From: Coriobacteriales bacterium
Lineage (GTDB): Bacteria > Actinomycetota > Coriobacteriia > Coriobacteriales > UBA8131
Assembly: GCA_031264075.1 (NCBI GenBank)
Contig: JAISEO010000092.1
Location: forward strand, 15,083-79,082
Direction of reading: 5' to 3'
Length of the DNA: 64,000 nt
The translations under genes and the position numbers were made by a program. Below the pieces are notes generated by a model that was given only the letters and a program-made list of their open reading frames with translations, was not told where the DNA came from and did not search any database. Positions 29,361 through 30,145 of this stretch are shown piece after piece. The first letter of the stretch is position 1; each line of letters starts with the position of its first letter.

Positions 29361-29394
29361 GCAGCTATCAAAAGGTAAACCTTTTGATAGCTGC
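29361..29394. promoter_or_regulatory. hix-like recombination site 1 (34-bp perfect palindrome, central AA)
   Basis: gcagctatcaaaaggt AA accttttgatagctgc. The arms are exact reverse complements of each other. Confidence 0.6.
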
Positions 29395-29472
29395 GACTAA
29401 CGACAGTCATCCAGTGCCGGGTCGTCTCCCCTTTGCCCATTTTGCGAAAAACAGGTGGCTTTATGCCCGAAT

Positions 29473-29503
29473 TTGCTTGCGCTTACAGATTTTGTGCTAT
29501 GAT
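29473..29503 (+). promoter_or_regulatory. candidate promoter inside the invertible segment (extended -10)
   Basis: tgcTATGAT at 29495-29503 (TGn plus -10). A weak -35, TTGCTT, lies at 29473-29478 with 19-bp spacing. It currently points away from the array. Confidence 0.35.
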
Positions 29504-30145
29504 ACAGGCGCTATCAAAAGGTTTACCTTTTGATAGCGCCTCGTCGCTTTCTGCCAGGCGGAGTTCGCGTAATCGGCGGTAGAACGTGGCCTCTTTCATC
29601 CCGGACTGCACAAGCACATCGGCAATCGGCAGCTTCCCCGCTTCCCATTCATCTACCAACGAGCCGAAGTTCTCCGGCAGCCCTTTAACCGGTCGTCCGA
29701 GGTGGACACCCCGCGCCCTCGCGGCGGCGATTCCCTCGGCCTGCCTCTTATGGATGGACTCGCGCTCGCTGTGCGCTACAAACGAGAGGATCTGGAGCAC
29801 GAGGTCCGCGATGAAGGTGCCCATCAGATCCTTGTCTCTGCGCGTGTCCAGGAGCGGCATGTCGAGCACGGCAAGGTCCACGCCACGCTCCTTGGTGAGC
29901 ACGCGCCACTGCTCCTGCACCTCGTCGTAGTCGCGGCCCAGCCGGTCGATGCTGTGGATGTAGAGCAGGTCGCCCGCCCTGAGCTTGCGCAGGAGGGCCT
30001 TGTAGGCATCCCTTTCAAAGTCCCTGCCGCTCTGCTTGTCGATGAAAATCATCGTGGGCAAGACGCCTGTCTCTCTCATGGCGGCAAGCTGTCTGTCCTC
30101 ATTCTGATCCGCGCTCGAAATGCGGACGTAGCCGTAGACCTTCAC
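29483..30145 (-). CDS. small serine recombinase (resolvase/invertase family)
   Basis: GTG start. [19 protein letters not shown].. carries the catalytic Ser motif. ..DRLGRD.. is present and the C-terminus has an HTH. 220 aa. Confidence 0.9.
29507..29540. promoter_or_regulatory. hix-like recombination site 2 (34-bp perfect palindrome, central TT)
   Basis: ggcgctatcaaaaggt TT accttttgatagcgcc. Shares a 28-bp core with site 1, but the central dinucleotide is inverted. Lies inside the last codons of the invertase gene. Confidence 0.6.

Follow-up and report, generated by a model that had tools for sequence, protein, structure and literature searches.

A predicted DNA-inversion promoter switch beside a small serine recombinase gene in a Coriobacteriales bacterium

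Hin-type DNA invertases (Hin/hix of Salmonella, Gin, Cin and Pin) combine a small serine recombinase, encoded beside the switch, with an invertible segment that contains a promoter, and they act on two inverted 26-bp dimer sites, each with two 12-bp half-sites in inverted repeat that flank an asymmetric 2-bp centre. The locus analysed here, which lies in a 64-kb stretch of DNA from a Coriobacteriales bacterium (hereafter, the window), has the same layout, with a candidate promoter in the corresponding position, and its half-site TATCAAAA resembles the hix half-site, TTATCAAAAACC. Unlike Hin-type segments, however, which are about 1-4 kb long and carry genes, the segment of the window spans 146 bp and leaves the recombinase gene outside. 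The window is also distinct in being without an evident Fis site or enhancer, and in belonging to a family in which the spacing between the two sites is helically quantised. Fis is a proteobacterial protein; to our knowledge it is not known in these phyla, and a Fis-bound enhancer would not be expected in Actinomycetota or Clostridia.

Two further groups of serine recombinases are close enough to be compared. The Mpi system, which governs the polysaccharide promoter invertons of Bacteroides fragilis and thereby surface structures, resembles the window in using a serine recombinase on short (<250 bp), promoter-only segments, yet a single Mpi enzyme serves many loci, whereas in the window one recombinase lies in cis with one switch, and the site motif is another one. 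Sin (Tn552/pI9789), beta and the gamma-delta/Tn3 recombinases share with the window enzyme the catalytic domain, the E-helix, the C-terminal helix-turn-helix and crossover at a 2-bp centre. Resolvases, however, work on res sites that lie in direct repeat and include accessory subsites, and they remove the DNA in between, whereas the window presents two bare inverted crossover sites. Invertible promoters as such are well known and widespread in gut anaerobes, in which short inverted repeats surround a promoter upstream of surface or adhesion genes (PMC11892184, PMC11602134). In the hCom2 survey, the main enzyme-linked group of Clostridia invertons (group 139) is tied to tyrosine recombinases (PMC11892184), and a 2026 paper on small serine recombinases beside defence genes only speculates on inversion as a means of regulation (PMC13552941). 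Our literature search found no paper that contains the site motif of the window, and the motif is absent from the supplements of PMC11892184.

The recombinase of the window, a protein of 220 amino acids, is encoded at 29483-30145 on the minus strand and matches PF00239 over residues 3-147 (E 4e-27). It is identical to MDR1089055.1 of a Coriobacteriales MAG, for which one 94-kb contig is on record. The protein consists of an N-terminal resolvase domain followed by a C-terminal helix-turn-helix; the catalytic domain is full-length, and residues R8 and S10 align with Sin and gamma-delta resolvase. The two crossover sites are 34-bp palindromes located at 29361-29394 (distal to the recombinase gene, site 1; core 29365-29390, centre AA at 29377-29378) and 29507-29540 (proximal, site 2; core 29511-29536, centre TT at 29523-29524). 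Site 1 reads GCAGCTATCAAAAGGT-AA-ACCTTTTGATAGCTGC and site 2 reads GGCGCTATCAAAAGGT-TT-ACCTTTTGATAGCGCC, as taken from the window and recomputed in Python, and in each of them two perfectly complementary arms of 16 nt flank the 2-nt centre. Both sites contain the 26-bp core CTATCAAAAGGTNNACCTTTTGATAG, which occurs only twice in the 64 kb when up to three mismatches are allowed and was not matched in any of 100 shuffles of the window; the site pair is far above chance expectation. Since the cores are otherwise identical, polarity is set by the centres alone (AA versus TT), and the sites are therefore inverted relative to each other. The outermost bases of the arms differ between the sites, being GCAG..CTGC in site 1 and GGCG..CGCC in site 2. 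The window holds four half-sites in total, which make up the two inverted crossover sites, and no accessory half-sites. The original prediction had described these two palindromes, their inverted orientation and a stretch of about 112 bp between them; the letters are exactly as it described, and the interval between the palindromes (29395-29506) is 112 bp.

In-silico inversion from centre to centre delimits the predicted invertible segment as 29377-29524, which measures 148 bp with both dinucleotides and corresponds to a spacing of 146 bp. The segment contains no gene, although the last 11 codons of the recombinase open reading frame reach into it. Specifically, site 2 is located inside the 3' end of this frame and encodes ..LSKGKPFDS.., and inversion would replace the present 11-residue ending with ..FDSCD*. 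The 220-residue frame that runs through site 2 and stays closed in both orientations, as originally proposed, is thus reproduced with both of its tails. Its closure in both orientations is incidental, however, as the reading frame extends through a site in only 4 of 64 loci with a site pair, the window included; in most homologues the recombinase stop codon precedes the proximal site by 15-20 bp.

The segment carries a candidate promoter at 29473-29503 on the plus strand, comprising an extended -10 element, TGCTATGAT, at 29495-29503, where the original prediction had placed it, and a weak -35 element, either TTGCTT (29473-29478) or TTGCGC (29477-29482). At present it is directed at the 3' end of the recombinase gene, in antisense, and in the in-silico inverted state it points toward the array described below. 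This promoter is a consensus match only; its -35 element is poor, and the two possible spacers are 15 or 19 bp. A region-wide promoter scan gave nothing above shuffled sequence, and a terminator scan was uninformative. In the nearest relatives (loci L171-L173, 79-84% identity), whose inner segment sequence is homologous to that of the window, an aligned element, TGGTACCAT, is kept at the same -10 placement. The window -10 ends 21 bp from the proximal centre rather than the roughly 30 bp found elsewhere in the family, and L171-L173 place theirs alike. The accompanying claim that the present orientation has no comparable leftward promoter is nearly right; the scan gives a weak match (9/12, minus strand, TTGATA-17-CAAAAT, 29517->29489), its -35 being the half-site itself.

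The first gene downstream of the switch encodes a zinc-ribbon membrane protein (28556-29206, minus strand); it has GGGAG 7 nt before its ATG and starts 155 bp past the distal site. It is followed on the same strand by a co-directional array (13898-28481), the presumed target, with genes in the order Flg_new/NPCBM lipoprotein, vWA, PP2C, four kinase-like, DUF4440, zinc-ribbon and amidase_2. This cluster of about 15 kb lies on one strand with the recombinase gene. Upstream of the recombinase gene are CNNM/CorC and TerC genes, which are chromosomal housekeeping types, and no transposase gene is adjacent. The four kinase-like proteins, which share the stretch 13898-26937 with vWA, PP2C and the amidase_2, are paralogous and give only weak Pkinase matches; a C-terminal domain is identifiable in two of them (YARHG and DUF6273) and in neither of the others. 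The vWA and PP2C reading frames overlap by 71 nt. A PADLOC scan of the array returned weak generic kinase-domain matches only, and we dismissed a recognised defence system on this ground. An Rfam scan gave no match at gathering score. Two repeats lie close to the start of the zinc-ribbon gene. A tandem repeat at 29069-29125 (9-bp unit AGTACTTGC, 6.3 copies, 93% match) lies in frame in the 5' part of the coding sequence, where it encodes ..STASTASTANTASTASTAST.., and its length may vary. The 155-bp leader that separates the distal site from the start of the gene contains an 11-bp unit, AATCCGTACGG, twice, at 29290-29311.

To place the locus in a wider context, we compared it with loci that encode related recombinases. 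More than 8000 relatives are found at E<1e-20, most of about 201 aa and labelled 'Pin-like' by JGI; 80 genome and 80 metagenome loci were fetched, and counts are given on 161 homologous loci. Many of these come from Clostridia of the termite gut, the rumen and the mammalian gut, and others from Coriobacteriales, Synergistales and Selenomonadaceae. Site pairs were sought by scanning the surroundings of the 3' end of each recombinase gene for palindromes with a 2-bp centre, and they were selected on palindromy and arm similarity only. A similar pair is present just 3' of the recombinase gene in 64 of the 161 loci, the proximal site usually lying 15-20 bp past the stop codon and the second site 91-187 bp beyond. 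Among the homologous loci whose downstream sequence is long enough, about half have no clear pair at the thresholds used. In particular, no palindromic site is detectable downstream of the recombinase genes of L023/L024 and L046/L061 (62-68% identity), and the link between this recombinase clade and a switch is therefore not universal.

The centres of the two sites are mutually reverse-complementary in all 64 pairs, although this was not a selection criterion and would be expected by chance in 1/16 of cases per locus. GT/AC accounts for 48 of the pairs, AG/CT for 9, AA/TT for 5, and GG/CC and AT/AT for one each. The half-sites vary between loci and match within a locus (for example GTCTAAAAAAGT, CTTTGCAAAGGT and CCGCCAAAAGGT), and the nearest relatives L171-L173 have arms almost as in the window but CT/AG and GT/AC centres in place of AA/TT. 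Such covariation of the centres is what is expected of a 2-bp crossover overlap that is cut and religated by a serine recombinase. A palindromic AT centre is present in L102 and L161-L163, as GGTCAAAAGGT-AT-ACCTTTTGACC; a site of this kind is without polarity, so deletion and inversion would both be chemically allowed.

The distance between the centres is not continuous. It falls only into the classes 125-128, 135-138, 145-148, 155-160, 164-169, 176-178 and 187 bp, with the gaps between them empty, and a Rayleigh test gives a period of 10.25 bp (R=0.74, nominal p~1e-15, a value inflated by the relatedness of the loci). The seven classes lie one helical turn apart, which implies that both sites sit on the same face of the helix and pair through a very short loop. 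With its 146 bp, the window belongs to the 145-148 class, corresponding to 14 turns.

In most relatives, 29-32 bp separate the end of the -10 hexamer from the centre of one of the sites, through which the hexamer points outwards; it frequently reads TGnTATAAT and is preceded, 17 bp upstream, by a good TTGACA. Across the loci, the promoter points towards the recombinase gene in 40, away from it and to the downstream gene in 10, and is ambiguous in 13. The 'toward' and 'away' arrangements are exactly the pair that inversion between the centres would interconvert, and the window, in which TGCTATGAT points at the recombinase gene, is in the majority 'toward' state. A downstream open reading frame was called in 17 loci, and in 15 of these (16 when the gene called on L176 is taken for L044) the first gene past the distal site is on the recombinase strand and so runs away from the switch; the downstream genes start 40-300 bp past the distal site. 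Their products are varied and include an SPFH protein, a flagellar hook/rod protein, an FtsK/FHA ATPase, a thioester-domain adhesin, a dockerin protein, an O-antigen ligase and one UvrB, cargo that is typical of phase variation.

The arms of the sites differ with promoter direction as well. Many sites are self-palindromic beyond the 12-nt core, with arms of up to 22 nt, and these additional bases are not the same in the two sites of one locus. Over the 8 nt past the core, self-complementarity is 7.8/16 in 'toward' loci and 4.2/16 in 'away' loci (random, 4), while direct similarity between the two sites rises from 4.75 to 6.2. The self-minus-direct score separates 'toward' from 'away' loci with a Mann-Whitney p~1e-4, which overstates independence as the loci are phylogenetically related. 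Because the states were called from promoter scoring alone, this comparison of arm palindromy is an independent test. Judged from these sequences, the arm pattern is the footprint of half-site exchange, in which two self-palindromes are converted into two hybrid sites.

Several single loci show additional features. L109 has three extra half-site-like repeats 3' of its distal site (..CTCTTTGATATCAGAA.. twice, then TTCTTTGATAG), possibly accessory binding sites; the window has none like them. L054 and L056, whose recombinase genes are 94% identical at the nucleotide level, have the proximal site and the first ~70 bp of the segment in common and then diverge fully, and L054 has no distal site, which suggests that the switch has undergone a rearrangement or deletion. 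In L172 (1738-3808), a close homologue (83% identity) that has a full switch directly follows a MobA/MobL relaxase gene, a context which suggests that some cassettes may ride on mobilisable elements.

Inversion is directly visible in one homologous cassette. Flipped isoforms of the recombinase were computed for the read-through loci L044, L082 and L097, and native and flipped forms were looked up exactly in the sequence collection. All three native forms are present, and the flipped isoform of L044, an Oscillibacter MAG locus whose recombinase is 62% identical to the window enzyme, is present exactly as P0126 of a Logan assembly. The contig of P0126 (L176) is identical to the in-silico-inverted L044 at 1313 of 1317 positions, including 773/775 and 361/363 in the flanks. 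Over the 179-bp segment itself, the agreement is 179/179 with inverted L044 compared with 52/179 with native L044, and the differences between the arms map the exchange to within 4 nt around the centre. L176 is an ON-state contig, its promoter (TTGCAA-17-TGGTAAATT) facing the downstream gene. L044 and L176 thus carry the same cassette in opposite orientations, as an inversion switch predicts of homologous loci, and the inversion in this cassette is real.

Other contigs bear on orientation in different ways. The contig end of L137 fits inverted and not native L032, the two recombinase genes sharing 94.5% nucleotide identity. Contigs tend to break at the proximal site: ends within 50 bp of the recombinase gene fall on its 3' side in 12 cases versus one on its 5' side, and two of four contigs with P0110 stop at the site. 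An all-against-all BLAST of inner segments for reverse-strand matches returned one identical pair only, because inner segments diverge fast. Apparent pairs of states at other loci were discarded: the tail variants P0012, P0121 and P0122 are divergent loci in the same orientation, and L156/L158/L159 as well as L165/L166 are one locus recovered from different samples, always in a single state. Where L008 and L109 cover the same locus, the MAG version L008 has a run of N exactly between the sites (about 1953-2032), as if the segment could not be resolved by the assembler.

For the window locus, an exact look-up of its flipped isoform in the collection gave no match. Its zinc-ribbon protein is absent from the record, and its CNNM protein is on one short Logan contig (SRR14710921) that ends inside the recombinase gene. 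Inversion at this locus is accordingly a prediction from homology, and GCAGCTATCAAAAGGTAAACCTTTTGATAGCGCC is the sequence diagnostic of its inverted state.

In line with its domain plan, the closest solved structure to the recombinase is Sin/Tn552 Bin3 (2r0q, E 4e-27, 99 bits), followed by the gamma-delta and Tn3 resolvases (~1e-18; gamma-delta 71 bits), with Gin (4m6f/3uj3; 57 bits, 2e-14) behind both. Membership of the Hin family was ruled out on these scores (Gin 57 bits versus 99 for Sin and 71 for gamma-delta resolvase), and membership of the Mpi family on an NF009949 score of 32.6 bits against a cut-off of 272. The C-terminal domain alone has no significant match in the PDB, so the helix-turn-helix is not tied to the DNA-binding domain of Hin. 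Firmicutes plasmid recombinases, one annotated 'res', are among the relatives at about 51% identity, while viral contigs contribute only two distant relatives, and the family is therefore not phage-associated. By these comparisons, the enzyme seems to represent an invertase lineage that arose among the Sin/beta-type small serine recombinases; it works like Hin and Mpi, yet lies outside both clades. Of the original 'Hin/hix-like' label, then, the functional analogy stands, whereas the enzyme is closer in sequence to Sin and gamma-delta resolvases than to Gin, and the segment is 146 bp compared with about 1 kb. A Sin-related serine invertase with a cis-linked, helically phased, promoter-only switch should be the better label.

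Taken together, these findings make it probable that the window locus is a DNA-inversion phase switch that aims a promoter to or from the cluster of about 15 kb. In such a switch, serine recombinase dimers would bind the two 26-bp palindromic sites, and the 146-bp loop between the sites would bring the dimers together. The enzyme would then cut both sites at the central dinucleotide, where AA and TT could religate only after inversion, and exchange of the half-sites would flip 29377-29524. In the present state, transcription from the TGCTATGAT promoter would enter the recombinase gene from its 3' end, in antisense, and the array, left without a good promoter, is presumably OFF in the assembled window. 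In the inverted state, the promoter would face the zinc-ribbon gene and the vWA/PP2C/kinase-like array, roughly 15 kb, turning them ON. We infer both the activity of the promoter and the extent of the regulated operon from sequence. The earlier reading as an invertible promoter, with inverted sites, a serine invertase in cis and a promoter-bearing segment, is, apart from its Hin/hix label, well supported by the comparison of loci and by the flipped relative.

Three other explanations were weighed against this one. The family may be real and the window locus nonetheless fixed, its palindromes serving as recombinase operators and/or as RNA hairpins (a terminator or insulator past the recombinase gene) around a segment that no longer flips. 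Such a reading would account for the one orientation on record for the window and for the fact that both sites are at present perfect 34-bp self-palindromes, which fold as RNA at -23.6 and -25.1 kcal/mol, compared with -18.8 kcal/mol for the hybrid sites formed after inversion; extended self-palindromy is, moreover, typical of the majority 'toward' state. On the other hand, neither hairpin is followed by a T-run, the arms of the cores are perfectly preserved, as are the complementary AA/TT centres, the enzyme retains R8, S10 and a full-length domain, and the homologous cassette of L044/L176 flips. We therefore regard a fixed locus as unlikely. Alternatively, inversion may be real but have its main output elsewhere, in antisense RNA on the recombinase gene, by which the switching rate would regulate itself, or in the changed C-terminal tail, with the array served by a promoter of its own. 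The promoter faces the recombinase gene in 40 of 63 loci and in the window alike, the tail of the window protein would change on inversion, and a weak leftward promoter-like match is present. However, read-through of the site is as rare as noted above (4/64, window included), in 15 of the 17 called loci the downstream genes are directed away from the switch, with starts 40-300 bp past the distal site, and the ON-state promoter of L176 faces the downstream gene, which together leave an output other than the array rather improbable.

The third explanation, that the enzyme is a plasmid or transposon resolvase, with palindromes that belong to a res site or to the ends of a mobile element, draws on its closest solved relatives being Sin and gamma-delta/Tn3, on the Firmicutes plasmid relatives at ~51% identity with their one 'res' annotation, and on the relaxase gene adjoining the homologue L172. 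We consider it highly improbable, because the sites are inverted and not direct, no accessory half-sites lie nearby, no transposase gene is adjacent, the flanking CNNM and TerC genes are of chromosomal housekeeping types, and what is seen in L044/L176 is inversion and not deletion. The absence of accessory half-sites in the window rules out a res site as such.

Relatives of the cassette with 55-84% protein identity are found in Coriobacteriales, Clostridia, Negativicutes and Synergistales, in one case next to a relaxase gene; the family is widespread and, as far as our search shows, undescribed. We tentatively suggest, with less confidence than for the switch itself, that the recombinase and its 125-187-bp switch form a portable phase-variation cassette that has spread across phyla and come to lie upstream of very different operons. 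Spacing by whole helical turns may permit a minimal loop synapse without a Fis-type enhancer, and breaking the OFF-state self-palindromes into weaker hybrids may mean that each flip both re-aims the promoter and remodels a hairpin or insulator.

Most of the Clostridia invertons catalogued so far are tied to tyrosine recombinases, unlike this serine-invertase family, and small serine recombinases beside accessory clusters are usually taken as mobility markers. The rules that emerge for the family, namely a site consensus of CTATCAAAAGGT-NN-ACCTTTTGATAG, complementary centres, whole-turn spacing and a promoter about 30 bp from one site, allow a large family of serine-invertase switches in gut and termite-gut anaerobes to be recognised from sequence. 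With its very short, helically phased loop, the switch would lend itself to the study of enhancer-independent synapsis as a compact natural system, and could serve synthetic biology as a small part. For this uncultured Coriobacteriales bacterium, the prediction is that the 15-kb cluster of vWA, PP2C and kinase-like envelope proteins is phase-variable.
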